This document shows positions 691-38,600 of a stretch of 64,000 nucleotides of DNA, piece by piece; position 1 is the first letter of the stretch; each line of letters begins with the position of its first letter. The translations under genes and the position numbers were made by a program. The stretch covers positions 10,354 through 74,353 of the forward strand of contig JAUYBI010000071.1 in the NCBI GenBank assembly GCA_030693145.1. Reading direction: 5' to 3'. This DNA comes from Candidatus Omnitrophota bacterium. Its GTDB lineage: Bacteria > Omnitrophota > Gorgyraeia > Gygaellales > Profunditerraquicolaceae. The notes below the pieces were generated by a model. That model was not told the origin of the DNA and ran no database searches. It saw only the letters and a list, made by a program, of their open reading frames with translations.

Positions 691-743
691 GGGAAATAAT
701 GGGACCGTTTCTGTTTTTCAAGAATAAGGGTCACTTTCCCCTC

Positions 744-1322: not shown

Positions 1323-1341
1323 TCAAAAGGAGGAGAGTAAG

Positions 1342-1509: not shown

Positions 1510-1532
1510 ATTTTTTAGAGGAGGTGAAAAAG

Positions 1533-1889: not shown

Positions 1890-1903
1890 GGAGGTGAACA
1901 AAG

Positions 1904-2564: not shown

Positions 2565-2565
2565 A

Positions 2566-3681: not shown

Positions 3682-3691
3682 TAAAATAATT

Positions 3692-5317: not shown

Positions 5318-5322
5318 ATAAA

Positions 5323-5529
5323 ATGAGAAAAAAAGGGATGAGCGTGGTAGAATATAGTTTACTGATTGCGATTGTAATCGCCGGGCTTTTGGCAATGCAA
5401 GTTTATGTTAAACGGGCTGTAAGCGGCCGCTGGAAGGAAGCCGGAGATGTGTTTGGTTTTGGCAGGCAAACGTCCAGGACCCTTCTAAAACCGCAGCCAC
5501 CAGGCGGCGGCGGATTACCGGGAATGTAA
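5323..5529 (+). CDS. Flp-family prepilin (paralog, 68 aa)
   Basis: Protein MRKKGMSVVEYSLLIAIVIAGLLAMQVYVKRAVSGR... ORF track 5323-5529. Confidence 0.65.
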   Translation: MRKKGMSVVEYSLLIAIVIAGLLAMQVYVKRAVSGRWKEAGDVFGFGRQTSRTLLKPQPPGGGGLPGM

Positions 5530-5531
5530 AA

Positions 5532-6377: not shown

Positions 6378-6379
6378 AT

Positions 6380-7261: not shown

Positions 7262-7321
7262 GCTAAATAGACTTTTTTAAATACACCTTTAAATTTTACT
7301 TGACTTTTTTAAATATCTACG

Positions 7322-7372
7322 AATACGACCCTGTTTCCCAGCCAATCGGGAAATAGGGTCGTATTTTTGTCG
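7322..7372 (+). terminator. intrinsic-terminator-like hairpin (repeat family D) after tadC
   Basis: aatacgaccctgtttccc-agccaatc-gggaaatagggtcgtatt forms an 18-bp stem, followed by TTTTTG. Half-copies occur at 811-830 and 8021-8047. Confidence 0.5.
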
Positions 7373-7456
7373 GTGCCCCTATTAAAATTGTCCAGTCTGT
7401 TTTTTAGTTAGATTTAATTGATTATTACGTCAATTATATTAGAAAGGAGAGCTTAA

Positions 7457-7969
7457 ATGAACGCAAAAGAGATTTCGGCAGAAGTAGTGGCAATGAAGAT
7501 TTTGTTGGTGAGGGGCAGAAAGGTGATGTTGGATAGGGATTTGGCAGAGATGTATGGTGTAAAGACTAAAGTTCTTTTGCAAAGTGTAAAGCGAAATGCA
7601 AAAAGGTTCCCGGAAGATTTTATGTATCAGCTTATAAAACAAGAGGTTGCCATCTTGAGGTCACAAAATGTGACCTCAAGATGGGGTGGTAGAAGATATT
7701 TACCGTATGTATTTACTGAGCAAGGCGTAGCAATGCTTTCTACAGTTTTGAATTCTGAACGCGCAATCCAGGTTAATATCGCTATTATGCGGGCATTCGT
7801 AAAGCTGCGCGAAGTCTTGTTAACGCATAAGGACTTAGCGCAGAAACTTGAGGAATTGGAACGGAAATACCAATTGCATGAGACAGATATCCAGGCAATA
7901 TTCGAGGCGATTAAGAGATTAATTGAACCGCCGGATGAGCCTCCCAAGCCACGGTTTGGGATGAATTGA
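7457..7969 (+). CDS. ORF6N-domain protein (KilA-N/ORF6N superfamily, phage/mobile-element-associated regulator-like)
   Basis: Protein MLDRDLAEMYGVKTKVLLQSVKRNAKRFPEDFMYQL...SRWGGRRYLPYVFTEQGVAMLSTVLNSERAIQVNIAIMRAFVKLR matches the ORF6N signature. SD AGGAGAG upstream. Confidence 0.65.
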   Translation: MNAKEISAEVVAMKILLVRGRKVMLDRDLAEMYGVKTKVLLQSVKRNAKRFPEDFMYQLIKQEVAILRSQNVTSRWGGRRYLPYVFTEQGVAMLSTVLNSERAIQVNIAIMRAFVKLREVLLTHKDLAQKLEELERKYQLHETDIQAIFEAIKRLIEPPDEPPKPRFGMN

Positions 7970-8042
7970 GATTGCCTACGGCCCCATTTTCCTATCAGGC
8001 TTGAAACAGTTTCTTAGCCAATCGGGAAATAGGGTCGTATTT

Positions 8043-17600: not shown

Positions 17601-20600
17601 AAGTGCCTTTGGGTAAAGTTACTCTTTCTGAAATATATCAGAATTACGATATCGCTAAGCTTAATGGATTATCGACGATTAAAAATATTCCTCAGATTGG
17701 ACTTTTAGCTGATTATGACTTTGATAATTTACCTATGGATATTTCGGATACTTTAGCGAAATCTGCGCCGATTATTTTACCCAAAACAATCACTCAGGGG
17801 ATAATTAATAATCTTGGGTTATCTGAAAATGAAGCTAAGTTAGTCTTAGGGGGAAGCAGGCCATTAATCGTAGTAAAAAATCAGGATAAATTTACTATTT
17901 TTGAAGCAGGCGGCATCAAAAGAGAAAACATAGATAACGCCGATTTATTTGATCTTGTAAAACCTATTACAACGAATGAATTTCTCAGCCAAGGCATGGA
18001 AAAGAAATTTGTTCAAACCTATACCGATTTAATACCAGAGGTGGAGTATAGAGAAGATTTAGGATATACAGAAAAAATGGGTAAAAAGTTATTTGATAAA
18101 GCGATTAAAGATATGCATTTGTCTGATATTTACAAATTCTATGCAGATACAAAGGATATTTCTACCCTAAAGACAGAAGAAGTGATTTTTAAACAATTTG
18201 GAAGAGAAATAAGAAGAAATTTTGGTTTCAATCCTGATATTTGGACAATAAAAATGGCATTAGATAAAAAACAAACAGGTTGCGTTACCGATACGCAATT
18301 TGCGGCTTTATTGGCAAATACAGTTAATATGCCCGTAGAGTATCAGAGAATAGAGGGCTTATCCAGGCCGCATTTCGTACCCATTATAAAATTTGCTGAC
18401 GGCAACAAAAAAATAGTAGATTTTACACCTTATTTAGATGAAACAAAAGTTTCATTTATCAGCAAGCCCATAGATATAGAAAATGATTTTGAAAGATTAT
18501 CCGGCAGTTTTAATCAATACCGGCTCAAATTAGGAATAGATACGGCAGATAGCTACTTAGATGCCCAAAGAGAGTTAAGAAATTTGCCTAATACCGGCCT
18601 TACTGCCGCTATCTATGGAAATATGGGAATGCATGATGATAATTTAAAACATTTATTTAAAGCTCTTGAATACGACCCCCAGTATCATCAAATTAAAGAT
18701 AAATTAGAAAGAGAAGGATTTATTATTCCTGTTGAATATAATGGTAACCAATATCTAATCGACAAAGAAATCGCTTCTAATGAAGTATTAAAGAAACAAC
18801 TTGCGCAGATTCCTTTACCTGAACGCAACATAATCTTAGACAAAAATAGCCTGATAGGAAATAACGGTAATAGTATTACAGAGGGTGTGGTGCGTAAAGG
18901 TGGAGTTCTTTACCTTAATTCAAAGATTTTAACTGATGATAATAAAGAAATTTTATTTCAAGCTTTAGAGTATGGTCTTAACGGAATAAATCCTGAGAAG
19001 GGCGTTGTCCATATTCTTAAAGCAGCCAAAGTTACTAAGCTGAAAGATAATGGCATTGGTTCCGGTGTTCCTTCTTTAGAAAGAATGTTTACATACTTTA
19101 AAGATAACGGTCACGGTCTCTCTGAAGAAGTAATTAACGATGCGGCGATATTTATCGGAGAAAAGCTAAAATCCGAGGAAATAGAAGCAATAATTAATGC
19201 TTGGCCAACTGACGGCGGCAAAGGGGTGGTGGATAGAAGCAGAGTAGAAGAAGCAGCTAAGTTTTTAGCTGGCCGGATTGCAGACTATGGATTAGGATTA
19301 CTGGCGCAACGGGCTGTAGAGGAAGCAATGGCCGATGCGAAAAAATTATTATATTCTGAGAATGAGATAAAGGAAGCGTTAGAATATTTGAATGCTCAAA
19401 AGGAAGCGGTTGAGAATATGTTTGTCTTGAATAATAAGCTTCGGGAGGAGTTTAATACTCTCGATCTAAAAGATTACGCTAAATTATTAGAACAACATAA
19501 GCAGCTGCAAAGAGAAGTTAATCCGGGGATGGAAAATATCATAAAAATCAAGATCGAAGCCGCGATATTAGATGAAATAATGAAACTTCTGGCGGCCCCA
19601 ATTGAGCAGGTTGCATTGATAGCCGGTAAAGCAGAGAATTCTGTTTTTTACGCAGATGAGCTTATAAAAGTTAGTACAACGCAGGCAAGGAATACAGGTT
19701 ATTCAATTTCAGGAAAAGAAGAGGATGCGCTTATTTCGCGCATTGTTGATTTGCGGAATGAAGAAAGAAATTATATTTTATTACATAACCATCCATTTGG
19801 CGTAGATGTGGAAAATTCAGGTTCGGATAAAGAGCAGATAGAAAATTTCGCGGCATTTATAAGCGTTATAGGAAACAATAAAGCGCCTCTATCTTGGCTT
19901 GCGGCTCAACGTTTGGATAAGGAAGGCAATTGGGAATACATTCCGTTTACTATAACAGATAATGGTAGGCCAATGCCGCTTGAAGCAGTAGAAAAGCGGT
20001 TTGGTAAGGCAATTAGCTATTATCCCGGATTGATTGAACATTTCACTAGTCATATTGTGGCTGGTAAATTAAGCAAATTGATAATAGATAAAGCTAATCA
20101 GCCGGCAGAAACGGATTCTGGCGAGCCTGTACGTGGGCAATCTCCAGCGCTTCCTCCTATTACACCAAACATACCTATGTCACCGTCTTTACGAGATGGC
20201 GGGGCGCAGCGGGTTCCGTTTGGCTTATTTAATAATAAAATAACTACCATATTGCCACAATTGGCGGCTCGGATTGGTGAACTTCCTGGTATTACTTTGA
20301 GCAAATGTTATGGCAGCGTTAATCCCAGGGGCCCGCCTGCTGGTTCCACGACTGACTCTTTAGTTGTAAATGTAAGTAGTGTAGCAAGTGTAGTAAGAAA
20401 CGCAGTTGGTTTAGTTGGAAAACTGTCAGGTGCCCAGAGTGTTGACTCCAGAAATGGAGCAAGAGGGCAGGATGCAGAAGGTGCGTCCAACAGTAATATA
20501 GGTAAGAGAAGTGGAGTAAGTTCAATAGGAACCAATGGTGAGGCAAAAGGTGCCGAAACCCGAGGTTCTATTCGTGCGTATGGCTTCCGCAATAAGATTA

Positions 20601-23600
20601 TTAATGATTTAAAGAAGTTAATCCTCATTCCTCAGTTCAAAAATCCGACAATTCCTGAATTAAATCAATTTATTAGCGCAATATTAAGGGATGGCTCTTG
20701 GCCTTCTGCGAGAGCAGAAGTTCTGGCCCCCAAGAGCACCCTTAATACAAATAATTATTCGCAGGATGGGGGATTATTCAAAAATGGCGATATTCTTAAA
20801 GAAATTAATGAATTAGTTAAAGTAATGGCTAAAGATATTGGTATAGAACGAATGAAAAAGGGAATCAATACTATAGAAGATACTATAGAAGACAAGTATT
20901 CCGAGCAGAATGAGGATATACAAACGATACTAACAGGAAAAGCAGTGGCGAAAATTATCGCAGATAAAGGGATTTTGTCTGTGGAGAATATTAATAAAGA
21001 AGGTTTAGAGATTGATGATGAATTTTGGGCTAAGTTGGAAACATATAAGAGGATATTGTCTGGGTTAAGTGATTCAGGATTGGACGCGGAGAAGAAAAAG
21101 GCTAAAGCTGGTGATAAGTTGGCTGGAAAGTTGGTTAGAATTATTGAAGGCATAAGAGGATTAACATATGAAGAAAAGATAGAGATAATAAAGGGAATGA
21201 TAAAAGATACACCATGGAAAGAAAGAATAAGAAAATTGATAAGTCTCTTGCCGTTAGAATTAAAAGAAGTTTTGATAAGAGAAGTGCCGGGTGAGGACAT
21301 GTCGAAGGTCGAGAGGGTTTTAGAGGAGCGTCCGTATAATGGGAATACTGAGCAAATATATAAAATTCTTGAAGAACTCAGAGAAGGACAGAAAAAAATT
21401 GTAGCGAAAGTAGATAGAAACGAAGCTAGGCTTGATGAAACTGAAGAGGCACTAGAAGATGTAAAACAAGAAGCAGGAGCAGCAAAACAAGAAGCAGTAA
21501 GAGTTAAAGAAGCAACTACGTTATTAGGTGCAGAGGTAGCTAAAACTAAGGCAATGGCGCTCGATGCACGTAGACATGCAGTAGGAACAGGGGATGATTG
21601 TTTGGTTGGCGCGGTTAAAGATCCAAATGTCAGAAGAGAAGCAGATAGAAATCTTCGCATAGAGGCTGGTGTTGATGAATTTGTTCCCTATGTGGTTAAG
21701 TATTTATATACTGGTATGAAGATAATCAGGCAAGATTATGATAAGTTTATTGAAAAATATAGGACTGAAGGGAACTGGAAGAAGGTAGAAACTTTAAAAC
21801 AGGAAAAATTGACCGTAGTGAAAGTAAGAGAAGAAAATAAAGCGATTGAATTGCTTTCAAAATATTCTGGAAGAATAAGCATAATAGTTCAAAAGTCTCA
21901 AGATCTACTGCATGTTTATCAGGTAACAGGTTATAACTCTGAGACTAGAATGATTTCATACTCTGAGGATAATGGAGAAGGCCATAATGTTGGATATGGA
22001 GAGATTGCTTTGGATGAAATCACTAAGATCTACGGCGAATATGTGTTTGTTTTAGAGGAAGGGGTAGTTAATGAGGCAGGATTAAAAGCAAATGTATTAA
22101 CTGAGAAAGAGCAGAAAGCAATTAAGAACGTTGGTGGAGCTGGTGTGGATGCCAACAACAATAACGGTAGCGTCACAAGCAACAGTGCAAGCAATAGCGT
22201 AAATAACAATACTGGTAATACAAATAGTAATAACAGCGATACTAATAGCAATGATAATACTAATAATGGCAATAGCAACAATGGCAACGGCAATACTGGC
22301 AATACAAATAACGGTAATGGTAACACTGGTAATACAAATAATGGCAAAGGTGGTAATGGCGCAGCAGGCAATGGGGTAGCTGGGGTTGCGGCGTCGCCTG
22401 CGGCTCCTCGCGGAGCAACCGGAACAGTAATAATAGGGAATGTGGAAGGTCTTTCTTCTGTTCTCAAAATAAGTAATGGCCTTAGCCCTCCGGAAGCTAT
22501 ATTCGTCGAACTTGCCAATACCTTCCGCAGTTTAGCTAACCAGTTAGAATCAAGATTGCTTCGCCCCTTCGGGGCTCGCAATGACACCCATAATACTAAT
22601 GACACTGCCGATCTTCGTAATGCAATAGATGTCCTTAATAATTCCGCCAGCGCCTCAGAGAATTTGTTTGGTTTGATGGATAAAGCAGTCCGCCGCGATG
22701 AGGACGATGTTATCACAGCTCTCCTTAAGAAACTCATGGGGGCGATTAAAACCCGCGGCCTCAAGGACCTGAATGGACGTTATTTCCGCGCCGCCCGCTT
22801 AATCGCGCACAGATACGGGCTTCCTTATTCTTCAATGGTCGAGCTTGCCGCCGCCTTTATGTTACTTAATGAAACAGATGATTTTATCCGAGCGCTAAAA
22901 GATGAGGCTGATGTGAGAGCTGAAGTATTAAAGGCTAAAGAAGGCGAGATTGCTTCGCTCACTGCGTTCGCTCGCAATGACGGGTTAGTGGTGACGAATA
23001 ATGCAGCAGCTTATGATTTATTGAATAATGTATTAGATATCTTGAATAATTCTGCAGCTAGATACGCATCAGACGGAGGGTTAGCAATAAATGCGATAAG
23101 GATTTGGCTTGAGGAGGTTCGGGCGGGCATAAGAAGCATAGTTGATATGGCGGCAAGCGTATTTAGGGTGATTAGCGGGTTCTTATTGCGAGTTGCGCAG
23201 CGTAGAGGTAATGACGCCTTACCGGATTCTAAGAGTTTGCCGGGCGAAAATAATAATGAAAACGCTTTCTTGCCGGCTCAAGATGGTAACTTAAAAAATA
23301 CTTTAGTTGAATTGGCAAGCCGCCTATTTGGTTCAGGCCGCGGATTAATCGCGGATTTACAAGGCGCAAAAGATGTTGATTCACAGAGAGTTGTGGATAC
23401 AAATAAACTTGTTTCAGCGATAATGGTTATAATCGGCACATCTTTGGTTATTATATCCCAGGCTCCTCCATTGGTTATGATTGCGTATTTAGTAATTGCA
23501 ATTAACCAATTAGCCACGGGAGGAGAAAATGTTAACGATTATAAAAATTCAAGAGATGAGAGAACAGATGGCGGAATTAGAAAACCAGTACCGCATTCGG

Positions 23601-26600
23601 CGTTTACAGGAATTCCGGCAGGCGGCAGCTTTGGAGATGCTGAATTTGAGAAGTATTTTAACAGAAAATCCGAACAATTAAGCCGTCTTTATATAGAATC
23701 AAATAATCCGGCCAAGCTTGGCGCACGCCTAGTGCGCGGCCAGTCTGCGCAGCTTGCAAATGCCCATCAAACCGACGGCGGCGCAAGAGAGCCTTTAGCA
23801 GGATTGGTAGAGGTTTTGAGAGTAAAAGATTTATTGGCTACAATTAAAGCCCGCGCGCAGAATGGAAAGAATCTTAATGGGCGTGTTTATGTTGGCGGTG
23901 TTTGTCGAGATAATATAGAACAAAGGCCACTACCGAAATTAAGATTACTGTTAAAGCAGCTAACAAAGTTCCTGACATTTTATCAATCTCCTTCCTTATC
24001 AGAATCTGGACGAATAAGCAAGCCCATTATTAACGAACCTAATAAACCTATAACAATTAAAACTTTAATTAGAATTGTAAGCTTAATAAAATCCGCTGCT
24101 ACTAATGCAGCAAGCAGAACTTTGGAAAAATCAAGTAAAGTTTGGGAAAGGGCTTTAAGTTTACTTTTAGAAAGAAACATCATCACAATCTTTCTATCAT
24201 ATATTAATAATTCTGTCAATACTATAAATTTTGGCACTAAAAAGAGACAGGGCCAGGAAACGGTTAAATACCAAGCCTGCGACGGCGGCGCATTTAGCAG
24301 GATGGGTTCATTCCCTGTAGGTTTACCATTTACAAGGTCCACAACGCTTCCCGTAGAACTACCTATTTCTTTACCGGTTTCTCAGGATGGTGGGAATAAT
24401 GTTAATTTAACTAAATTGGCAGCACAGGCATTCAGTTTAGATCATCGCGGTTTCATTGTTTCTGTAAGAAGAGTCTTAGGCGGTATTTCCAAATCTGAAG
24501 TAAAAGATGCTCAATCGCTACCGATAGCCCAGACAAACATTAAGAAGTCAATTTTCTCATTAGCTCCTCCGGTTAATGGCTTGATTTCGCGTTTGGTAAG
24601 CGTAATTAACCAATTAGCCACGGGAGGACAAAATGATAAGCATAGACAGAATTCAGGAGATGAGAGAGCAGATGGCAGAGCTGGAAAATCAGTACCGAAT
24701 CCGAAGATTGCAGGAATTCAGGACGGCGGCAGCAGTGGAAATGTTGAATTTAAGGAGTATTTTAACAGAAAACCCGAACAATTAACCAGCCGTCTTTATA
24801 TAGAATTAAAAAATCTAGCTAATCTTGACGCATACTCTGGGCTTAGTCCGCCTGCGCAGCTTGTAATTGCCTTAATAGCTGCAGTGGTATTTGGCCTTTC
24901 CGCTTTAACCCATCAAACCGTAATAAATTCCATATATTCCACTTTAAAATCCAGGGGACGGTTCTGTTTTTTACCATTAAGTTCAGAAAACAGAACCGTC
25001 CCCGTGTTTTTGATATTAACTTTAACCACTACTTCACAAAAAGGAGGTGAATCATGTCACCCATTAAGCTCGAAGGCATCAGGATCCACCACATCATTGA
25101 CTCCACAAAAGATTATTCAACTTTTGCTGCAGCTCGTGAACACGGTAGTAACAAGATTAGGATCTTCCTGGTTAAAGATTCAGGCTCTGTCTATGCGCAT
25201 ACTGGACAGGAAGACACATGGAAGGAGATTGTCGGATCGGTCGCCGCCTACATCAGGTATTCCATCAGCCAAGCCCGACAATATGTTCCCGTCTACAAAG
25301 TCAATACAGCCTACGCTACAAACTAAAGCCGGTTTCTACGCTGCAACAAAGAATATTGTGATTTCTATTATCGCGTTGTTCTTTGTTGCGGCGCAGCCGG
25401 CAGCTGCGGCGGAAGGCTCGAAATTATCAGAGATGGTTCTTTTTGGAGGGGCTATATTTTTAATAGCAGCAATAATATTCGGTTTATTCCTCGCGTTTTC
25501 GATAAAGATGGGTATTCAAAAAGCAGAAAAAGCTATTGAAGAATATGGGAATAATACCCGGAGGATCGAAGATAGTGTTATAGCTAACCAAGTGATTGAA
25601 GCTTCAGCGATACATATAGAATCTACAGCAACGTTAAAATCTCCTCCGAATGCGTTATGGGTTTTAGAAAAGCTAACTTATCTTGGATCCGGAATTATTA
25701 CTCTATATTTTCCGATCTTTGGATTCATTAGGTTATCCTCTTGGATGATTGGTATCGGATATGTTTTCCTTATAGTGGGCGGTATAATAATTATACATCA
25801 TCTTGGTATGATGAAGAATAAAGCTAAAGGCATGAAAGTAGCGGGAGAAAGAACTCCTGCACAGATAGTTACAAATAATGGCCTTTATAGATGGATTCGC
25901 CATCCGCTTTATTTAGGGCAAATGATATCAGTAATTGGGTTTGTTTTAGCCTACACTAATTTATTTGCTTTACCTTTAAATATAATTTGGTTCTATTTAG
26001 TGAATAAATTGGCTTCTGCGGAAGAGGATTATTTGGTTAGCGTGGCTCCTGGTTATGCGGGTTATAAGCAACGGACAGGTAAATATATATATATACCAGG
26101 GTTTTTAGCAAAAAATAACGATAGTGAAAAAGAAGCAGTAAATAGTGATAATCTGTTTGATGGAGGGACTCTTATCGCTTTGGAAGCGGTATTAAGCGTT
26201 ATAATAATAGATCAACTTCTAAAATATATTGCCACCAAACGTTTACTTCCGCATTCTGAATATATTGATAAGGGTTTGAACTCTGATGGTTCATATCGCA
26301 GTAGAGGAACGACCGAAATTTATTATAATGAAGAGGCAAAAATTAAACTAATTGGACGGCTTGCACTTGTTAATGTAAGGCATAGTTCTGGCTCAAAAAC
26401 AGATAATATCGCCGTTGTTAAAATTGGTATTCTTGCTTCTTTGTTTGTGTTGTACGGCGCCTATTTTTCTGGTAACACTGCCTTGACTGTAATTTTTGTT
26501 TTAGCTGCTGGGGGATTCTTCGCTACCATCGTTGATATAATTAAATCAAAGTTTAGAGGAGCAATAGATCCGTTTATGTATGGAGGTACCTTTAATAATG

Positions 26601-29600
26601 AGCGGAGATTCGTTTTCTTCAATTTCGCAGATATATGTGTACTTACAGGATTGTTTCGCGCAGATTCCGGGGACGCATTACTTAATTTAAAAGTTGGCTC
26701 ACGGCGCGACGGCGGCAGGGTTCAGGGGGTGTTTGCGGTTTTAGGTGTTGGCGCATTAGGTGTGTTTTTCTTAATTTCCAGCTTGAAAGATTTAATTCTG
26801 ACAGTTTCTGGCGTAAACGGCATTAGCTTGGTATGGGTGGCATTAAAGCTGTTAATGGGCAGCAGCCTTATTTTCTCCAGCTATTCGTTAAATTATCTTA
26901 GGTTAGAGGCGGCAAAAGTAAATGGGCTTGTAACAAAGGGGCCATACAGTTTCTCAAGAACTCCTGTTTACTTGGGGTATATTTTAGCCGGTACTGGTTT
27001 TGCGTTTAGTTTAATTCTCTCCGGGGAGTTATATTCAGTATATTTTGCGGCTAATTCCGCGGCTATAATATATTTATATTTGGGAGTTTATAATGAAGAG
27101 AAAACGCTCGCGAAACAATTTGGAGAAGAGTATAGAAATTATCAAAATTCCGTTCCGAGATGGTTTGCGTTTAAGTTATTTTGGAAGGTGATAGTAAAAA
27201 AAGCTGATATTGACAGCCACCGGTTAACACAAAAAGACGGCGGCGCAGGGGCGTCGATAATTGAAAAGTTGTTAAATGCAATTAAACCCCGCGCGGAGAA
27301 TCTTTATTTGATTGCTTCGAGGTGGGATAATCTTAAATCTATTTCTTCTACTTTCCGCTCTACTTTTATCAATCTTAAATCTATTTCTTCTACTTTCCGC
27401 TCTACTTTTATCAAGCGTAAACCTATTTCAGCAACTTTCTCCCACGTTCTGGCTATGGTAGTTTCAATTCCGTCAATTCTTCTATTAATTGATTTTAGCT
27501 CTTCGCCAAATACCCTAAACTGGCTTCTTAGATCTTCAATGAGCACCGCCACTTCTCCCGCGGTCATTGTGGTTTTATTTTTAGCATTCTTATCCATAGC
27601 AGTAATTATAAGCGACAGAGTGAATTCTGTCAAGAATAATAATTTTACCCTTGAAATTAAGCGCTCTTATGCGATTAATCCAGCCCGCGACGGCGGCACA
27701 GGGACGATGTTACAGAATAAAATTGCAGCTACAAATATGGAACCAGAGGTTAAGCTTATGTTAACACGCAGGGGTTTCTTGGAAATTGGCGCTGGTATTG
27801 TTGGCTTGGGATTAAATCCGGGAATAGGGGGCATTAAAGAATTAGCAAATAAGTTTGCTGGTTTATTGAAAGGCGAAGAAATAGTTGATTTAAATAATCT
27901 TTCTGTTGACAGAGAGGCGTTAAAGCAACACGTAACAAAATTGGCTAATATCGGTACAAGAGCAGCCTATTTTAGAAATACAACTAATATTAACAAGGCT
28001 AAAGATTATATTGTTGGTTGTTTAGAGAAACTGGGATTACAAAGAATACATAATCCAATAGGGAAAGGATATATTTTACAGCAGTTTACAATGCAAGAGA
28101 TTTATGTTTATCCTAGAGACGATTATCCTTATTTAGACTATGAGTTAAAGTCATTAAGAAATCAAGAAAACATATCGTCTGAACAAACATCAGATCAATT
28201 GCTTTCCGTAAAGATAATGTCGTCACTGAAAACATTGCTATCGTTTTTACAAATCCGAAAAGAGGATAAATCACTTTTTGAGCTAAATATGACCATGCTG
28301 AAAGAGGCTGGTATCAAAGTTCCTGGACCATATGGTCCGGTAAAAGTACTTAAGAATGATTTAATCGTTGAGGGCACAAATATTATTGTTAGAATACCCG
28401 GAAGTAAGAATCCTGATAAGAAAGTTATTCTGGGTGCTCATTATGATTGTTTCAAAGGTGTTGGCGCTAATGATAATGCAACCGGGGTTGCTTGTCTTTT
28501 GGAGGCAGCAAGGATTATTTCGAAGTTTAATTTTGACGATACAATAGAGATTATTTTCTTTACCGCAGAAGAGGACGATAGTTTAGGGAGCAGTTTTTAT
28601 TTAAAAGAATTATTTGAAGAAGAAAAGGCCAATATAAAAGGGGTATTTATTGTTGATATGATTGGTAATAATAAAGGAAAAGATGAGCCTGAAGGGGAGG
28701 AAGATCTTAATTTACTGTATGATAGATATAATCCGGAAATATCTAAAAAGCTAATTGAAGAGACTGTAGAAGCTATACAGAAACACGTTTCGGATTTTTC
28801 AGTAACGGCTAATGAAGATGAGGGTTATGATAGTGACGATGACCCATTCCAAAGTGAAAGAATACCTACGATATTGTTTAGCGAAGATACCGGTGAAGAG
28901 CTTACAACTCAGAATGAGTTTTTTAACGGGGCGCAAGACACAATAGAGCATATAGATTTTGAAGGGTTTTTCCCCAAAGCAGTAAAAGCGGTTATAGTTT
29001 CCGTTATCGTACAAAGTAACTCTAATAAAGACGGCGGCGTAATTGGTTCTGCTATTATATTACTGGTTCCTGGCATTTGGAACTCAATGTATATGCAGTT
29101 GATAGGGGTGAATAGGCCTGGCATAGACCGCATCCTGTATGAAACCGGCCCGCCGGAAATTAAGATTGGAGTTATCAAATATTTATTTAATAGATTTAGC
29201 CCTGGCTCAACCAGTGTTTCTCAGCCTACCGTGGCAGGTATTTCCTTTAAAGCCCGCGCGGAGAATCTTTATTTGATTGCTTCGAGGTGGGTTAGCCGTT
29301 TACTGAAATCTTCTTTGATAATTCGTACGTCTTCTTCTATCTTAGCAAGTTTACCGTTCATTCTGGTTAAATCGTCTTTTATCCCCGCTGTCCTTATATT
29401 TAGCGTAGTAATATCTTCCCTGCTCTTTGCCACCATACCCATTGTGCTGTCTAATTTGTCTCTAAGCGCATCTTGGCCTTCACCGAGAAGCTCAATCCCT
29501 GAATGGACCTTTTCGAGGATTACCGCAAATTCCCGATCTTTATCAAATTCTTTGAGTTTCTTTGTCTCTTTCTTCATGCTAAGCAATTCCGGGAACACAT

Positions 29601-32600
29601 TACTTAATTCCCAGCGCGGCGGCGGCGCAGTTTTTATTCTTTTCGGTGTTTATGATGCGTTAGACGGTCAATACAAAACCAAACACCAAAAATCAGCACA
29701 ATTAATAATAGGGTTACTACCGCAGTCATTTCTATTATTTAGTATGATGAGAGTGAAGATGGCGGGGAATCGTGAAAATCCCGATAAGAATAATAAAAAT
29801 CAAACCACCAATCAACATAAACAGCAAACCGTTCATAATTATTCAACTCCTTTATTAAGCATAGTGGCAATGATAAAGGCTGCCATAAAAAACATCAAAC
29901 CTACCATAAATACACTAAGACGAAATTCAATTCCTGAGACGAATTGTCCGATTACTAACGCCGCAAATACTAATTTACCTATATCGTACAAAGATTTAGA
30001 CAATTCCTTTCAATTCTTTCTTATAAAAGATTCTGGGATAAGCAGATCTATTAACAAAGCCAAGAAAGATTCAATGGCGGATAGGGTGATGTTTGCGGGG
30101 GGTAGTAAAGAAGATACCCAAAAGCGCAATAATTATTATTATCAGGAACGTGAAAATCAAGATCATTTATCCTCCGAATTTTTCAATAGCGTTAGAGCCC
30201 AAAACACCAATATCACAGTAACACCCATCCCTAATATGATAGTTAATAATTTAATAAAGAGTTTTTCCCCTGAGAATATGGGATTTAGTATTACAACAGC
30301 AATTAGTAATTTACTTACATCAAATAGAGTTTTTGCTAATTCTTTGGATTGGTTCTCATTTAGCCGCATAGTTAAATATATACTACTAGAAGAGATTGTT
30401 GTCAAGCCAAATTATTTTATAGTAGCAAACGATGGATCTGCGACCGACGGCGGCATACTTAGTTCTGCTATTGTATTAGCGGCTCCGGGTGTTTGGAACT
30501 CAATTTATATGCATTCGATAGAAGGGATCAGGACTGGCGTAGACCTTTTATTATATGAAACCAGTCCGCCGTATACTGTTATTCTTCCTGATGTTTTCCT
30601 CCCAATAGTTTTCGTCTTATTATTATCCGTAATAACAAATTCTAAACTAAATTCAGCAAGATTTAGCCCTGGCTCAACCAGTGTTTCTCAGCCTACCGTG
30701 GCAGGTTGGTTTGTGTTGGCCGGGGCTATTTTATTTGTTACCCAGCCGCTGCTTACCTTAGGGATACTTACCGTGGCAGGTATCTCCTTAATTGGTGCGG
30801 CTATTGTTGTATATGGGGGCTTCGCAGGCATTATTCCTGCCGGGGCCCCCATTGCAACAAGAAAGGGCAGCGTTCCCGCGGTTGCGGATGGGGGAAGAAA
30901 AGTAAATATTGATAAAGTTACGATGACAGGCGATTGGCGGAGCTCAATAGCTAGAGTAGAAGAAATACTTAAATTGGTGGAAGATGCTTGTTATCGCGTA
31001 ATTATGGTAAAACAAGGGAAAGTCGATGCTGATACGATAATAAAGATAAGAGAGAATTACAAGGGAAGAAAACGGGATACAGCTATAGATATGAAGCTGG
31101 GTAAGATAATAATAAATGATAATAGAGAAACATTGCGTATATATAATATTCTGAGTAAACAGCAAAAATTTGTGGATATTTTTAATATTTCTATTAAAGA
31201 AGATGTCCGCGGAGCGGCAGCTCAAACATTTGGAAACCTGGCAAAGGAATTAAATATTCCACTTGAAAAGATCTCAGAAGGGTTGATGGAAAAAGGTGTA
31301 AAATCAGGAGAGTTTGAAACAGCCTTTGTTTTGTTAGAAGAGGCAAAAGACAAAATATTTATCGCGGTACAGGAGATATTAAATATCGATATCAATGAAG
31401 AAGGAGTATATAGCATTGGAAATGAAGGTGATTTTATAGATGCCCAAGGCAGACGCATAGATTTATCTGACTATAAAGTTGTAAGCCATATTCATTATCA
31501 TCCCGGAAGAAAAGACGGATATCCTGTTCCGTCAGCGTTTGATTTGGGTTTATATACGCAGCTATTGTTTAGTAATAATGAATTTATAGGCATTGTTTTT
31601 GGCAACGATACTCAAGATAAGCTTATATCCAAGGCGTTTGTCTTAAAAGACGGCAGAGACCTGGGAAAGTTAAAGCTCGACATAGAGAATTTGCTAGAGG
31701 AGAGGCAACTCTTGGAAGAAAAAGGCGTAACGGAAGCTAACCGTAAAATATTTATTGGTATGTTTGAAATTTTTATCAATGAATATTTCCGCATAATTCA
31801 AACCGAAGATTTTAAGATAAACGAAAATTGCGGAAAAGAAGCCGACGGTGGAGAAATAATAGACCCAGGCACTTATGAAACGGCTCGGAAGATAAACTGG
31901 AATGAATGGTTTTTAAAATATGACGCGGTATTTTTCCTTAATATAGTGACGTTGTTTACCCCTAGGGATGCTAAGGCAATAAGCAAGACTATAGAAAAAC
32001 TTAAGGAATTAAGAAAAATTAATCCCGGTAAGTTTAAAACAGCGTTAGAAGAAAACAAAGATTATATAAGGGGTAAGATTCTTAACAATATGAGGAGTGT
32101 TGCCAAACAGGTAACACATACAGAAGAATGGCTTTTTGGTGACGTGGACGCATTATCATACGATAAATTGGATATGTTAATGGAAGTCTTTCCAGAAGCA
32201 TTTATAGAAGCAACAGAAGAAAGAACCAATAGCGAATTAGTTGGAAACTTTAAACTTGCGACTAAAGGTAAAGAGCTTATGCATAAGGCAACAAATTCTA
32301 TGGGGCAAAGACTATTGGAGCAAGAAAATAAAAATGTAAGATATTTATTGGCTACCTTATTCACAGAGGGCATGGATAAAAAAGAAGAGCTAGATAACAT
32401 TAGAGAAACAATAGCCGCTCTTAGTAGAGCGGATATAGAGGACAATATTTTTGTCTACTTATCTTTATTAATAAATACAAATGTAAATAAAGAGTTAGCC
32501 CCGAAGGTCGCCAGAGCAATAGAAGGTTTCTTAGCCGAGAGGGGGATAAAAGGTAATATTAATCCGGATAGTTTAGTAGCAGAATATAGCAAAATAATAG

Positions 32601-35600
32601 AAAATGGCCGAAGGATAAAGCATATCGCCATTAATTTAGAAGCTGTATTTGGGAAGGATGTTTTAATAATATGGGATAGTTTATATAATTCTTTACAGGG
32701 CAAGAGGCAGTTTCAGATAAGCCGGATAGTGGAAAGTATCAAATCGGGTGTGGGGAGCCTGAGCAAGAAAGGCGCGGTGAATGTTCTGGTTGCTTCCGGT
32801 GATATGTTAGGAGAACAAGGCCACAAACAGATTATCGAACCATTTAACAGGGCATATAATAGCGGCATAGATCTGGATAGTAGAATAAAAGAAGATTTTG
32901 GAGTAACGGAAATAAAAGGTGACAAGGTTATTATAATCCGCGCTGAAGAGAAGAATGTGTTGAATGGGGCGCCCGCCGTAGTGAATATAATAACAGACGG
33001 AGAAATGCCTGTTGGGATTATAGACGCGGTAGTAACCGGCCTGTACGAGCAAGGGGAAAAGAGTTTTATCAAAGGGTTTATGAATCTGTATGAAAACGGA
33101 GCAGAATTAGTATTGGGTTACAAAGTACTTGATATAAATGGCGTAAGGGTAAAATTGAAATACGATAACGAAGAGAAAAAAGAATACCCCGTAATTTACA
33201 TTACTATAAGTATGTACGACGTCGCTAAGATGTTAGAAACAATAGCCGGAAAAAACTGCGCTTTGGACGGCGGTAAGGATTCGCAAGATACGGGTTATCT
33301 ATTGAGTAAAAATGAGGTTCGCGCGGCTACTTTGGCTGGGGTGGGGTTAGTTGTTTTATCCTTTATTCTTTCAGCGTATGGTTTTGAAGATTTAGCAATT
33401 GCCAGCGGAGCGATTGGGTTTATGTTAACTGCTGTCGTAGCGATAACCTGGTTAGCCATTAAAATTAATCCTCAGATTAAAGAGGTTTATTTAGAGGCGC
33501 TGGAAAACGCTAATGAGCCGGTGGCCATATCAACCGTTTCCGGGGAGGAAGAAATTTCTAATACAGTTTTACCAATGGAAACAGAAATGAGAATAGAAGG
33601 GGATATTATTCATCACAATTTCTCTCCCAGCCGGATCGGTGAAAATAAAGCAAACGGGTTAATCACTAAAACAGTTGCAGCAATTGATAAGGTTAACAGC
33701 GCCGCAGGCGTTAATTCTGCATATATGAGCCGCTTAGATATGTTAGCCGGATTATGCCTTTCTAACGGAATTATCGGAGTTTGGTATTTTATTAAATATT
33801 GGAATGCGTATGGAATGGACCCGACCAAGACCTGCGAACAGTTGCTTTTGGGTAAGCAGGTATATGGTTATCCTCACCCGCGGCAAGTCGATATCTGGCT
33901 GGCTTGGAAAGATAACGCGCCCCTGGGTTATGCCGTAGCGTTAGGGCCAGATAAATACCGCCATATAGCTTATGTAGCGGTTGTTCCTGCAATGAGAAAG
34001 CAGGGAGTTGGGCTTAATTTAATGAAAGAGTTTTTTGAATATGCCAGGAGCCAGGGAATCGCAGAGTCATCTTTACATGTTAACGCAGATAATCTAGGGG
34101 CCTTGGGATTATATAGGAAAGCAGGTAGGTTTGCGGATAAAGTAGTAGAAATGGTAAAGGAAACCCCGTCCGGCATTGCTCAAATAAGAATGGAATTTTC
34201 TATTAATCGCGGGAAGGGAGACAACAAGCAGGCTGACGGCGGTTTGCTTAGGGCTGGGCCGGTGTTTAGTGAACGTGCTTGTGGCGATATTGATCGATCC
34301 CCAGCCAAACTAGGATTACGAGAATTATGGCGCTTAGGGTTAAAAGGGCGGTCATATCAATCTTCCTCCAAATTTCCTTTTGGGCAGACAAAAATTGCTC
34401 CTACCACTGAAAGAATCGTTGTTAATATAAAAGCAGTTTTCCACGGCATCGCTGCTTTAAGGAAGGCTTCTGAAATAAATAAAGCAATTACTAATGCCTG
34501 GAATAAATTTATTAAAGCTTTTGCAATTAACCGTCTGCGCGAATCTGTCCAAAATACATCTTCTTTCATTGAAAAAATACTACCATATCTTATTAGAGTT
34601 GTCAATAGCAATAACTTTAGAGATTCTTCGTCGCTGACGCTCTTCAGAATGACGAGGAGAGTAATTGAATTTGACGGCGGCAGAACGATAGTAGATTTTC
34701 TAAAGAAAGTTCCGTTAAAAGTTTGGCTTTTGATTCTCGCGGCTGTTTCACTTTTATTATTCAACGTACCTACGGTAACCGGTGCTTTGGCTGTTCCGGT
34801 TCTGGTGGTGGTGGGGATAACAATTTCCGGGACAACAATCGCGATTTTGGTACTTATAGTAATTATAGGAGTGTTGGCTGTTAAGAAATCTTGGCCTGTC
34901 ATAGCTCACCTTGCGGGTTTTGCTGGGGTATTGTTTGGCGTTTCGAAGTTACCGTTAATATACGCAGCAGCAAGTAATTTTGGTATGTTAGGCGCGTTAG
35001 GGTCATTTGTTGTTTCTACAGGAATAATCGTTGGCGCGATGTTCTTCTTCTTCGCGCTTATTGTAGATTATAAGAAATACGGGAAAGCAGAATTACATTA
35101 TACAGGTAAAGGCATTACTTCTTCCTTAGAAGACTATCAGATGCTTGCTTTGCAGGATATCGCGAAAGAGTATTCAAAAGAGTACTCAAAAAATAGTTTC
35201 AGCACAAAGAAGCTTTATTCGTTATATAAAAATAATCCCCGTTATCTAATAGCTGCGTTTGCGGCTGGTTTTATTATCGCGGCTGGTTTTATATTATTTA
35301 TTCCTACAGTTTTTATTGCAGCTACTATCTTAGAATCGTTGGCGTTAGGCGTATTGTTCCCTTATCTTGCGCATGTATTTCTGGATTTCTTTGGTAAATA
35401 TTCATTCGAGAATTTACATAATGTTGAAAATTTACAAAAGATTAAAGATTCTAAGGAGTTTGAAGAACGAGCTAAAAAATATAAAGGCGAGCTTGAGCGG
35501 GTGCGCAATCCCGAGACAAGGGAAAAAGAAGGAACTACGGATTATAGTGTGTTTATCTACGAATCAAGGATTATTCGCGCTAAGTTAGCCTTTCGCTTCC

Positions 35601-38600
35601 CGCTGGAATTCGGAATTGCCCAATTTTTTACACAGAGGCTCGTTTTCGCAATCGGTTCATTCGTTCTCTCAAGGGCGATAGTGCCTTTGATTATCTCCAA
35701 AGAGACGGCAATGGGCGCGTCTTTAACCACAAGCCTCGCTAATTTACCTTGGGGGATTGGAGCTACTTTAACTGGCTTAGGATTTGCTTTAAGTATAGAA
35801 GGAATTTTAGGTATCCTGATTCTTGCTTTTTTCCTGGGCACATTACGTATTCCTGAAGAGGCAAAGAGCTTGGTTAAAACTTTTCAGAATAAAGGAGGGA
35901 AGATGGGCGAGATTTTTATTACAGCCTGGAGCCCATTAAGCAGGAATGATTTATTCGATAAAAAAACAGACTCTGCAGATTATACGGATTTCAAAATTAA
36001 GATATACACAGTTGTTTTCTTAAGCAAGTTTTTGGCTTTCCTGCCGTTAGCGGTATTTACCGTGTCATTATTTACCGCGCCCTATCTGGCTTTAGTTATT
36101 GGCGTAATTTTGGGGGTCATTCTTTTAAGCAAAAAGATGAAATTAATAAACAATTTTTGGTTAGGTTTTTATTCCTCTCAACTTGAAAATTTACTCCGGA
36201 GCAGCGGAGGCTTATTTATTGTGGCCGGAGAAATTGGGATGGTCGTTGCTTATGGCCAATATATTCCGGTGGTAAGCTTAATTGTCCAAGCATTTGAAGT
36301 GGATGCGTTAAAGTGGGGCAATCAAGTAGTTGAGAATGTTGAGTATCAATCGGGAGTTTCTTTCTCCGGGGAAGTTTATCATACCTTAGGCGGAAAAGAA
36401 GATTTGAACGTTTGGTGGAATGATGTTTATAAAGAAAGAGAACTGCAGGAGAGTAAAGTCTTAAAATCCTCCGAAAGATTATCTCCGATCGCTGCGGTAA
36501 AATTGGAAGCTATGAATAAACAAATAGCCAGTGTTCCAGAAGCTTATTATTTCCAAAAGATAGGCGATGGCAGCCAGGCGGTTAGGGTTTATCCTCCGTT
36601 AAATGATGGGGAAATAATGAACGCAAAAGTTGTGGATGTGAATGGATCGGTTGTTTTTGAGAAAAATTATACGCGCGGGCCGCCGGTGATCTTAACTGTT
36701 GAGCAGCTTGGTTTAGGCAACAAGACTATTCTTGTAAACAATCAGAGTTACAACATCAATTTTACCTCTTTCCCTTCCCCCTTACCTAAAGGATATGAAG
36801 CAGCGGTGGGCTTAGAAGACAAAGACGGCTCATATGTTTGGTTTAATGCTACCGATTATTTCTTCAAAGATGAGTTTCTACCCGACGCAAATACGAATAA
36901 CGCAAAACTGGATAAACTGGTTTTTGATAACGGGCTGAGATTACCCGATAACAGCAGTGTAAAGGGCGTTATAGATATAAATATACCTGATAATAATCAG
37001 ACACTTCGTTATAACTTCGCAAGCGCAAATATAAACGGAAAGCCTGCGAACTCCTCCTACTATATGCCAGGCGAAGCAAATGCCTCTAACAGCCCGCTTG
37101 ATAAATCGAGAATTTATCTAAATGCGGAAGAGTTTGCAAAATTACATTCAAATGAAACCACGGCCAGCGTGAATATGAGCGAAAAAGACATTAGTGCTCA
37201 AGTTGCGAATTTACTTAAGTCAGGGTTTGATAATTTTACGATAGCCGCTGTTACAGAGAAGAACGTAAAGGTGATAGATACGATTATAGAAGAATTGAAC
37301 AAGCCGAGTGCAACGGTTAATGTAGTTAAAACGCCGTCCGGAAGTGAAATTAATAAGTCGATGCCTACTGCAAATGAAACTGAAGTAATTGTAAACGAAA
37401 CCGGCTTAAAGACATTTGTGTCAGATAAGAATACTGTTCGTTATTATCCGGAAATTATTAAGGTTACCGTAAGCTCAACTAATAAAACTGCAGGCGTATA
37501 CGCTAAGGATATAGATAGTTATAAAGGTAAAGATTGGGGATTCTGGTCATTTATCGGGAGATATCTTGACTGGAATGATATAGCAGTTACTTATACTGAT
37601 GCGCTTGGCAATCTAAGGCAGGGCTATGTAAGCGAAGACGCGGACATTAATTATTCTTATGAGGAAGTAGCCGAGTTGCTAACAAAAGAAGAGACGGCTA
37701 AAAACATTACGAACCCGAATGTTACAATTCCTCCAGTCACTGTGCCTAAAGAGTACAATCGAACGAAGATTATACCTGATTTTCCTCGTGAGGGCACAGG
37801 CGGCGGAGGAGGAGGAAACGAACAATTTCAGCCAACGATAGGGTTATCAATTCCGGAATGGTATTTTTATTTCCCCACTACACACAGCGGGTTTGAGCGA
37901 TTTGATTGGACAAACAGCACAAACCTTACCGGCTATCCAAGTGCTAAGGTAGCTTTTTATACGTTATATGTTAGAAACGCAACTACAGGAAGGGATGATT
38001 TGATTTTAAACACCGGGAATAATATTTCAACTATGGATATTTTCCCGGGCATTATATCTGACGGCACGTATGATGTTTCCGTGAGGGCATTGTCCGGGCA
38101 ATGGGCAGCTTCCGGGACAGTGGTAAGTGAAAAGAGCGCTTCTGTAAGAGTAAACGTAACTACTGTTCCCGATCCGGCGCTTAATTTAAATGCCAGTATG
38201 TCAGGCATAAATCTTACTTTCAATGAAATTTTTCCTCCTATGGAAACGTTTATACTTCTTACAAGGTCAGACGGCGTAATTGAGATGATAAATGTTACTG
38301 GCGAGAATCATCATGTATTCTACAATCTGCCTGAGGCCATGCATAATGCTAAGATAGTGGCTATAAACGGGGTTACCAGCCGCGGCAATATCACTGATAA
38401 CAACTTTAATTTTATTTACTCTAATCTGACATGGCCCGATATGCCGGCGAGTAATTCCACCGATGTAAACGGCAGGGCAGTTATTGAATTCCAGAACGGC
38501 ACAAGATTACTTCCCGCAAATATTAAAGAATTATGGGTAAAGGTAACCGGAAGTGAACCCCCGTTCCGAAATATTGGAACCGGCGCATTATCTAATAATG

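Follow-up and report, generated by a model that had tools for sequence, protein, structure and literature searches.

Genes nested inside other genes, in another frame or on the opposite strand, are already known, as are giant multi-enzyme open reading frames (ORFs) in Omnitrophota. In Bacillus subtilis, comS is a functional gene of 46 amino acids (aa) that shares its strand, but not its reading frame, with srfA-B, the very large multi-module ORF around it. It is a single nested gene in a fully constrained host domain. We analyzed a 64,000-nt stretch of a Candidatus Omnitrophota genome (GenBank assembly GCA_030693145.1, contig JAUYBI010000071.1, positions 10,354 to 74,353; the whole stretch is called the window below), most of which is taken up by a giant ORF. 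In contrast to the comS case, at least nine genes are nested here within 12 kb, three on the same strand and six on the opposite strand, the host frame over them has the character of filler, and nesting is kept across a family. The segment is probably the interior of a read-through multi-enzyme polyprotein gene with resident nested genes, and its units are punctuated by the tripeptide Asp-Gly-Gly (DGG).

Three other kinds of system invite comparison. Polyproteins are processed at Gly-Gly in polyubiquitin with its deubiquitinases (DUB/JAMM), by viral papain-like proteases (LXGG), and by C39 peptidases. The units described here are likewise arranged head to tail, their boundary motif is short and ends in Gly-Gly, and a JAMM-like unit sits in the array. 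They differ in having Asp at the third position and no wider context, in mixing heterogeneous enzymes with filler, and in belonging to a bacterial chromosomal gene in which cleavage is a putative step. Integron cassette arrays are also linear sets of strain-variable units with a short conserved core at their boundaries and small genes that include toxin–antitoxin pairs. Unlike them, the present array holds genes in both orientations and is a single ORF as a whole, and a search for attC-type repeats found no inverted repeats of ≥40 nt in 20–38 kb and no conservation beyond the 9 nt of the DGG codons. The palindromic elements of Rickettsia are short noncoding repeats that are tolerated as in-frame inserts in protein genes and translated as an extra peptide, whereas the inserts here are complete transcription units with selected frames of their own.

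Antisense ORFs that are fully embedded, have their own promoter, and show signs of purifying selection have been described in Escherichia coli and Pseudomonas aeruginosa (PMC9927249, PMC8850804, bioRxiv 10.1101/2020.11.18.388249). There an old, constrained host carries a young ORF of restricted taxonomic range, whereas the embedded genes here belong to established families (DUF6722, a coiled-coil family of roughly 100 aa and, on a scaffold of a distant relative, hicAB). The polarity of the classic cases is thus reversed, in that the embedded genes are conserved and the host frame is merely open. The giant ORF itself resembles the multi-enzyme giants of Omnitrophota (class 1; bioRxiv 10.64898/2026.06.07.730766; West-Roberts et al. 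2023, bioRxiv 10.1101/2023.11.21.568195) in its unrelated enzyme domains (signal peptidase II, methyltransferase, GNAT, kinase, HEAT), its many transmembrane segments, and its Tad/T2SS neighbors. It has at least 10,000 codons and many unrelated Pfam domains (M28, GNAT, ICMT/PEMT, Peptidase_A8, HEAT, cytidylate kinase), as do members of that class. For the Omnitrophota giants, C39/S8 cleavage into smaller products has been proposed, both papers state that the cleavage points are unknown (10.64898/2026.06.07.730766; 10.1101/2023.11.21.568195), and C39 double-glycine peptidase domains have been reported in such giant proteins. Neither paper mentions a DGG delimiter, out-of-frame or antisense inner genes, or per-frame selection. 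By term searches within these two papers, and among the top hits of wider literature searches, we found no delimiter-punctuated array, no complete antisense transcription units or toxin–antitoxin pair inside one maintained ORF, and no small-protein families that are mostly or only nested.

Nested genes and the frame that spans them

Frame +2 of the window is free of stops from 8666 to 64000 (55,335 nt, 18,445 codons), where it is truncated by the window end; each of the five other frames has 704–2,081 stops. An initial sequence-only reading had held this frame to be open across a segment in which real enzyme modules alternate with junk-like stretches carrying genes in other frames, and the openness is borne out. 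Frames were compared with those of L003, a 9.6-kb contig from JGI that carries an ortholog of the same giant ORF at 66%–94% nucleotide identity and in which the giant frame is open throughout, outside two 100-N scaffold gaps; most of the comparison contigs are short. Per-frame synonymous (Sd) and nonsynonymous (Nd) differences, and the ratio ω of nonsynonymous to synonymous rates (dN/dS), were obtained by the Nei-Gojobori method. Together with the recoding simulations described below, they were used in place of a six-frame profile of codon-usage log-odds, which is driven mainly by stop penalties and is weakly informative.

The three same-strand genes, two paralogous ORFs of 50 aa and one of 90 aa (Table 1), are all under purifying selection in their own frames. 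Differences from L003 in the first 50-aa copy are mostly synonymous in its own frame (Sd 22.5, Nd 4.5; ω = 0.05) and entirely nonsynonymous in the giant frame (Sd 0, Nd 27), where they create no stop. The second copy gives ω = 0.21 in its own frame and 3.2 in the giant frame. Compared with each other, the paralogs differ at 31 nt (21 synonymous and 10 nonsynonymous; six amino-acid differences), for a pN/pS of 0.11 when read in their own frame, as against 5.1 for the giant frame. The Shine–Dalgarno (SD) sequences and own-frame selection first reported for these copies hold, but the count of differences given then (20, of which 18 synonymous and two nonsynonymous) needs correction. The 90-aa gene, whose strong SD sequence (AAAGGAGGTG-N4-ATG) had been read correctly from the outset, shows ω = 0.04 (Sd 23, Nd 3) in its own frame, against Sd 0 and Nd 26 in the giant frame. 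The sole indel adjoining a nested ORF is 3 nt long, and over the nested genes the giant frame takes on neither a stop nor a frameshift. Loss of the alternate-frame ORFs in orthologs had been named at the outset as what would overturn the sequence-only reading; checked against L003, these ORFs are conserved, and the reading is supported.

Purifying selection on the host frame, by contrast, is not seen over the nested ORFs, where the giant frame has Sd of 0–1.5 against Nd of 18.5–29.5 and stops alone are excluded; it is the embedded frames that are selected, with ω of 0.04–0.21 for the three same-strand ORFs and conserved families for the coiled-coil and 90-aa genes. Since the amino-acid sequence of the giant frame is not conserved over the nested genes, the arrangement would be one of read-through filler plus a nested gene, and not of two selected proteins; the counts show what appears to be unconstrained filler save for stop exclusion. 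Elsewhere the giant frame itself is under purifying selection: its ω against L003 is 0.27–0.49 in the giant-coded units (19211–20154, 22629–23470, 24312–24580, 31844–33265, and the GNAT unit).

A search of 1.84 billion representative proteins yields about 30 homologs of the 90-aa protein; almost all are 84–103 aa long and can be aligned end to end, with clear conserved motifs. AlphaFold, given the family alignment, predicts a compact domain of β-sheet and helix with a predicted local distance difference test score (pLDDT) of 89. The protein has no Pfam match and no significant fold neighbor in the PDB, and a match to NCBIfam was set aside as not credible (E = 0.081; 12.5 bits versus a cutoff of 192.75). 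On four further contigs (L009–L012), which carry homologs at 76%, 51%, 40%, and 33% identity, the frame lying +1 nt from the gene is open across the contig (177, 243, 173, and 192 codons, respectively), and the remaining frame is crowded with stops. Once the window and L003 are counted as well, the family is nested in the same register in six of six genomes, down to 33% identity. An ATG followed by a codon that starts with A makes a TGA unavoidable in the +1 frame, and in 26 members of the family not one of the 30 Met residues precedes K, N, T, I, or M (8.0 expected), and Lys, Thr, and Asn never occupy the second position. This footprint suggests that the 90-aa family lives nested throughout. 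The 50-aa ORF has no homologs among 5.8 billion proteins besides a 96%-identical ortholog, called as a gene in L003, and a 50-aa ORF on another contig (L013) proved unrelated to it. In the giant frame, the GGAGG within the SD sequence of each same-strand ORF translates to Gly-Gly (TGGEN, TGGQN, and KGGES), as is also the case in L009–L012.

On the opposite strand lie two paralogous coiled-coil ORFs of 109 aa each (A and B) and four genes that are, or resemble, the small membrane protein DUF6722. The coiled-coil family comprises 27 homologs (45%–100% identity, typically 102 aa), one of them in a Ca. Omnitrophica metagenome-assembled genome (79% identical), and is nested in at least five of seven contexts. 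ORFs 23983 and 34357 have no PF20482 match and are tied to DUF6722 by alignment and by their common promoter design; in the coding sequence (CDS) 23983–24183, the antisense frame scores above the giant frame in codon usage. The design, TTGACA-17-TAnnAT-7-ATG, is found in four of the six antisense genes, and in coiled-coil gene A it matches the sigma-70 consensus at 12 of 12 positions (TTGACA-17-TATAAT-7-ATG). Only two sites in the 64 kb have its strict form, and each belongs to a nested gene; in 200 shuffles the strict form never occurred together with an ORF of ≥40 aa. The spacing between promoter and ATG implies that these four genes would have leaderless mRNAs. Small minus-strand genes antisense to the open giant frame, as proposed in the sequence-only reading, do exist, but they are not notably SD-led, as had been thought, and appear instead to be promoter-driven and leaderless. 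The ATGA overlap ascribed to them was not found, the sole 4-nt overlap being a TTGA at 31222 between junk-like shadow ORFs. Several of the minus-strand ORFs listed at that stage are shadows as well, among them 20755–21660 (301 aa) and 32062–33072, which we rejected as genes; they are of low complexity, contain stops in L003, and lie where the giant frame is selected. Both occupy the permissive antisense register defined below and are easily mistaken for nested genes.

A free-standing copy of the coiled-coil gene (L006–L008) lies downstream of an alanine racemase gene and has the same promoter, TTGACAGAATT...TATAAT, right before its ATG. Given the promoter common to coiled-coil gene A and the free-standing copy in L008, the antisense genes would have entered as complete transcription units, and they are evidently captured, not overprinted. 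Within coiled-coil gene A, a perfect 42-nt tandem duplication (27329–27412) adds 14 residues (RLIKVERKVEEIDL twice) and preserves the giant frame.

To see how the giant frame stays open, each nested gene was randomly recoded with synonymous codons and the resulting giant-frame stops were counted. Over nine recoded genes, the joint probability of an open giant frame is ~1.7e-10. Recoding of the same-strand ORFs yields 4.0–4.8 expected giant-frame stops, with a probability of no stop of 0.002–0.005 each (0.005 and 0.002 for the first and second 50-aa copies); synonymous sites in these ORFs thus appear to be selected to avoid stops in the giant frame. The antisense genes take a different course. 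All six sit in one register, in which the third codon positions of both strands coincide (wobble against wobble), and the probability of no stop is 0.29–0.61 in this register and ≤0.02 in each of the other four possible registers. The free-standing copy in L008 has a single stop in the permissive register, so the barrier to embedding would be low, and on two contigs (L013 and L014) that register is open through the coiled-coil gene for 878 and 864 codons.

A stricter case is provided by L005, a 96-kb scaffold of a distant relative with a called gene of 24,373 aa, on which the frame opposite hicB, hicA, and a coiled-coil gene is open over all 20.3 kb (6,774 codons). Because hicA overlaps hicB by an ATGA, it is held in a nonpermissive register. 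There 5.2 stops are expected and none is observed (probability of no stop, 0.001), and TTA or CTA makes up none of the eight Leu codons of hicA, as against four of six in hicB. Another contig, L004, was considered as a further embedded case and left ambiguous, having repeats like repetitive extragenic palindromes (REP) and a short open frame.

The DGG delimiter and the units between its copies

In the giant-frame translation DGG occurs 22 times, as against 4.8 expected from composition, and 20 of the 22 fall within 19.2–34.7 kb. At the DNA level there are 30 copies of GAYGGNGG (8.0 ± 2.7 in shuffles); the motif does not occur on the opposite strand and seldom occurs in other frames, and each of the ten copies of GACGGCGGC lies in the giant frame on the plus strand. 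Of the 20 DGG copies in the array, two (23567 and 24722) are incidental by-products inside the nested 50-aa ORFs, which leaves 18 sites dividing the interval into about 18 units. At these sites the six non-wobble positions are invariant, the wobble positions alone vary, and nothing is conserved beyond the 9 nt. Variation confined to wobble positions is a signature of peptide-level selection.

Comparison with other genomes adds to this pattern. Orthologous DGG sites persist in L003 with synonymous changes only, and where homology is interrupted, the break falls precisely at DGG. Over 30887–31843, for instance, it ends at ...SVPAVA-DGG and restarts at GKEA-DGG. L003 lacks exactly the unit 34243–34671, which in the window has a direct repeat of a 9-mer at its ends, and retains a single DGG in its place; a DUF6722-like unit is shortened or replaced there (23788–24311). 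On L005, DGG stands between recognizable enzyme modules and at either end of the hicBA and coiled-coil units, with 18 copies of GAYGGNGG against 2.9 ± 1.7 expected; GACGGCGGC occurs once, and GAY-GGC-GGG-CAG is repeated instead. A short conserved boundary motif, as in a self-processing polyprotein, is found at 18 boundaries; L003 conserves it at the peptide level, and L005 has it too. Another junk-like stretch of L005 with DGG on both sides (18063–18493) lies over small ORFs in other frames, one of which encodes a real-looking same-strand protein of 87 aa, and L005 probably holds further nested genes.

The units between the sites include several whole enzymes. Pfam matches in the giant frame between 25 and 34 kb are to M28, GNAT, ICMT/PEMT, and LspA, so that most of the modules recognized at first sight are confirmed (scores in Table 1); the second ICMT-like module falls below the cutoff. 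Scanned alone, the LspA unit exceeds the gathering score of PF01252 (Peptidase_A8), covers profile positions 2–134 of 142, and begins 11 aa past DGG. Units of this type, whole enzymes with DGG at both ends, fit an origin as welded genes. DGG directly precedes the natural N-termini of LspA and of the ICMT-like module, from which we infer that it would be the cut site of a polyprotein, releasing whole enzymes with near-native N-termini. The only relative of the M28 unit in the genome scan is a module with 48% identity that belongs to a different giant ORF (L002), and a metagenome scan with M28 peptides returned no matches. No Pfam match was found for the unit 31844–33265, nor any homologs for 31853–33265. 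Of the unit first labeled JAB-like, the E...HxH...SxxD motif stands; the label gains no support from Pfam (no match at E ≤ 0.1) or from a single-sequence AlphaFold2 model, which is unusable (pLDDT 37). The counterpart of this unit in L003 is an allele with 24% identity, and the motif residues are invariant in both alleles, in the form E...HxH-x10-S-xx-D, with a spacing unlike the canonical x7.

That GAYGGNGGN is mainly a DNA-level signal, or an uncleaved flexible hinge, and not a proteolytic site, is less likely than not in our estimation, although part of the evidence leans that way. Codons at the sites are homogenized within each genome, with one sequence used ten times in the window and another preferred in L005, and this suggests that a DNA-level component, duplicative or recombinational, is also at work. 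The unit lost from L003 between direct 9-mer repeats, with one copy left behind, has the same flavor, and no protease-site context extends past three residues. A DNA signal or a plain hinge does not account so well for the period-3 pattern of six invariant positions, the absence of the motif from the opposite strand and its rarity in other frames, the presence of DGG in distant genomes with different codons, or its place right before the natural N-termini of two enzymes. Three further ideas were dropped: a relic SD sequence, as the codons are GGC-GGC and not GGAGG; ribosome hopping between sites, as the units are ≥450 nt; and inversion of antisense units into frame, as hand frame arithmetic for the unit 27245–27688 fails.

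Two other features of the giant-frame peptide were seen near these boundaries. At the right edge of the coiled-coil B segment (29603–29626), the giant frame reads Q-R-G-G-G-A (CGC GGC GGC GGC), which may be a degenerate DGG. A 48-nt repeat, here called D4, is 100% identical across both window copies and L003 (5890–5937), and its flanks are 78%–94% identical; gene conversion or a second functional motif could explain this. In L009, L010, and L012, a related peptide, [PS][ST]VAG, is found in the flank of the nested 90-aa gene, and a metagenome scan with a degenerate D4 element found no matches.

Table 1. Features of the giant ORF and of its interior, in window coordinates
Feature	Position	Strand	Details
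Giant ORF	8669..64000	+	No stops; runs off window end
DGG-punctuated unit array	19211..34681	+	In-frame GAY-GGN-GGN (Asp-Gly-Gly) between units
DGG sites, first nine	19211, 20195, 20765, 23072, 23774, 24281, 24386, 26159, 26708	+	Giant frame
DGG sites, last nine	27236, 27689, 29030, 30446, 30887, 31844, 33266, 34235, 34673	+	Giant frame
Nested 50-aa gene, copy 1	23529..23681	+	Out of giant frame; SD GGGAGGA 23518–23524, N4 to ATG
DUF6722-like gene	23983..24219 (CDS 23983–24183)	-	TTGACA (24219–24214)-17-TAGAAA-7-ATG; inside DGG unit 23774–24280
Nested 50-aa gene, copy 2 (paralog)	24633..24785	+	Out of giant frame; SD 24622–24628
Nested 90-aa gene	25054..25326	+	Giant frame is own frame +1 nt; SD 25040–25049
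ICMT/PEMT-like methyltransferase module 1	25757..26036	+	PF04140 and PF04191 above cutoff; ICMT/PEMT 34.8 bits
Complete LspA (signal peptidase II)	26159..26707	+	DGG-to-DGG unit; PF01252, 29.2 bits
ICMT-like module 2	26708..27235	+	DGG-to-DGG unit; PF04140 20.5 bits (below cutoff), DUF1295 20.5 bits
Coiled-coil gene A	27304..27633 (CDS 27304–27597)	-	TTGACA 27633–27628, TATAAT 27610–27605; fills DGG unit 27236–27688
M28 peptidase	27689..29029	+	DGG-to-DGG unit; PF04389, 99 bits; own twin-arginine-like signal MLTRRGFLEIGAG
D4 element, 48-nt repeat	29192..29239; second copy 30659–30706	+	Encodes RFSPGSTSVSQPTVAG in giant frame
Coiled-coil gene B	29269..29577	-	102 aa from Met8; paralog of A
DUF6722 small membrane protein	29839..30003	-	PF20482, 28.2 bits (gathering score 27), profile 2–48 of 49
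DUF6722-type gene	30163..30405 (CDS 30163–30369)	-	TTGACA (30405–30400)-17-TATATA-7-ATG; PF20482 20.7 bits, below cutoff
JAMM-like unit	30887..31843	+	DGG-to-DGG unit; E...HxH...SxxD motif only
Unit without assigned domain	31844..33265	+	DGG-to-DGG unit, giant-frame coded; giant-frame ω 0.27 versus L003
Two transmembrane segments and GNAT acetyltransferase	33266..34234	+	DGG-to-DGG unit; PF00583, 50.7 bits; giant-frame ω 0.39
DUF6722-like gene	34357..34605 (CDS 34357–34569)	-	TTGACA-17-TAGTAT-7-ATG; inside DGG unit 34235–34672
HEAT/PBS-lyase repeat block	58946–59864		Giant frame, 3' part; Pfam
Full cytidylate kinase domain	61907–62591		Giant frame, 3' part; Pfam

A probable read-through polyprotein gene and its alternatives

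In the explanation that we favor, ribosomes would have to read the giant ORF from end to end to reach the downstream modules, and cutting at DGG would release whole enzymes and discard the filler peptides. The cutting could be done by the JAMM-like unit, which is found at the same position in both genomes, or by C39 double-glycine peptidase domains; M28 peptidases and LspA are not known to cut DGG-like sites. The array would have grown by welding and capture of neighboring genes, with units gained, lost, or swapped at the DGG-coding 9-mers. Each of the two explanations offered in the sequence-only reading is thereby retained in part. Dual coding is right insofar as the DNA is used twice, though over the nested genes the giant frame is free to change its amino acids; as for the welding of a multi-gene region into one frame purged of stops, the purging is demonstrable, the whole enzymes bounded by DGG fit it, and the antisense genes are evidently captured.

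Several observations weigh against this explanation. DGG is very short, at three residues, and its codon bias within one genome (GAC at 13 of 18 sites versus 24% gene-wide) hints at a DNA-level process as well. A 5.3-kb block (25350–30648) is missing from L003 through an in-frame microhomology junction that is not at DGG. Some of the nested genes have no DGG bracket of their own: the 50-aa and 90-aa ORFs lie in units that also contain giant-coded sequence. The giant ORF of L002 (labeled ‘Planctomycetales’), which has the related M28 module, contains no DGG in 21 kb, and in L014 another recurring motif, SSPIAS, apparently takes its place, so the delimiter is neither universal nor uniform. The JAMM assignment draws on the motif only. 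Consensus antisense promoters inside a 55-kb transcription unit imply head-on transcription conflicts that the model leaves unexplained, and both the translation of filler and the cleavage at DGG enter it as inferred steps. In L004 (6061–7551), a motif GGR[VA]ES[TA]SSPA recurs in the giant frame; this and the SSPIAS-like motif of L014 may be lineage-specific counterparts of DGG.

For the same-strand ORFs, capture competes with overprinting de novo in an unconstrained linker, which is possible and which we rather doubt. An origin in place would fit the 50-aa ORF, which lacks relatives beyond its ortholog, and the 90-aa protein, which has neither a Pfam family nor a structural neighbor. It would fit, too, with the nesting of the 90-aa gene in all six genomes checked at the DNA level, although the other roughly 20 members are known by their Met footprint only. 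The 90-aa domain is, however, well folded and well conserved, which is unusual for a young overprinted gene, and the antisense genes of the same array are clearly of the captured kind.

It is a good deal less probable that the nested genes are transient selfish insertions, mobile cassettes or toxin–antitoxin modules, in tolerant linkers. The embedded hicAB of L005, the presence or absence of units between strains (34243–34671, and the replaced 23788–24311), and the free-standing copy with the same promoter are what such traffic would leave, and survivorship would by itself put all antisense genes in the permissive register. Transience is hard to square with a 90-aa family that is nested in six of six genomes down to 33% identity and bears a family-wide footprint of nesting, or with nesting of the coiled-coil gene in at least five of seven contexts, far above the ~5%–10% share of genomes taken by giant ORFs (a rough estimate). 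No terminal inverted repeats were seen, nor any transposase or integrase, though no search aimed at integrases was made. The comparisons show nested genes that appear to be long-term residents.

Still more remote is the proposal that the giant frame is untranslated here, the segment consisting of separate genes and the openness being coincidental or kept for a nontranslational reason. The lack of amino-acid constraint over the nested genes, the strong antisense promoters inside the giant frame, and the preference of gene callers for the small genes on fragmented contigs would all be expected in that case. But the joint probability of such openness is about 1e-10 for the nested genes alone, about 18 units lie in one frame with indels in multiples of 3, the frame is kept open over the 90-aa gene in six of six genomes and over hicA of L005, and in that frame it is the peptide sequence of DGG that is preserved. 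The last alternative, that the alternate-frame and antisense ORFs arise by chance or as shadows of giant-frame codon bias, describes the junk-like, unconserved 20755–21660 and 32062–33072 in the same antisense register, but to judge by the comparative data it is already refuted for the nested genes, with own-frame ω of 0.04–0.21, one ORF above a Pfam gathering threshold, two families (27 and about 30 homologs) whose members keep a constant length, a confidently predicted fold, four consensus promoters, and three strong SD sequences, and we give it next to no credence.

Setting and significance of the giant ORF

The giant ORF probably starts at ATG 8669 and continues with an N-terminal membrane anchor. 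Pfam finds nothing in the giant frame in 8.7–22 kb or in 35–50 kb (~9,400 codons together), no C39 domain was found by Pfam in the window part of the ORF, and Rfam has no matches in 18–36.5 kb. The region 5' of the giant ORF (1–8000) contains several Flp/type IVb pilin-like genes, TadB/TadC (T2SSF), and a gene with an ORF6N domain; these upstream ORFs were judged by eye as pilus-like and ORF6N, with precomputed Pfam results covering the TadB/TadC and ORF6N genes only.

In the gene calls of L003, small nested ORFs were called only where scaffold gaps had broken the giant ORF. On intact assemblies, a giant-ORF call would hide nested ORFs and nested families would be systematically under-annotated. 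The output of a gene caller is the giant ORF or else, where contigs are fragmented, the small genes, so that some small families that appear mostly or only nested would go under-annotated.

A broader generalization of the polyprotein explanation is offered more tentatively, as a possibility to which we give somewhat less than even weight. The giant ORFs of Omnitrophota could be read-through super-operons that engulf neighboring genes in any frame or orientation. Captures in the same frame would become enzymes bounded by DGG and released by proteolysis; captures out of frame or antisense would become obligately nested, co-evolving genes whose codons are shaped to keep the host frame open. DGG would then be a new processing code for bacterial polyproteins.

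DGG is the first concrete candidate for a boundary or cleavage code of bacterial giant proteins, which the literature names as the piece still lacking for their dissection. With DGG as a guide, these ORFs can be divided computationally into units for folding and annotation. Overlapping genes in bacteria have usually been debated singly, and here at least nine are found in 12 kb, with conservation across genomes and footprints at the codon level. One ORF would be kept open by selection across transcription units on the opposite strand, among them a toxin–antitoxin pair, while the nested genes are under purifying selection of their own. If this is true, part of the ‘dark’ sequence in giant proteins may be wrong-frame filler, and so may many of their predicted transmembrane segments. 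The locus also provides a testable model for the growth of giant genes, in which they would enlarge by welding and by engulfing neighboring genes.

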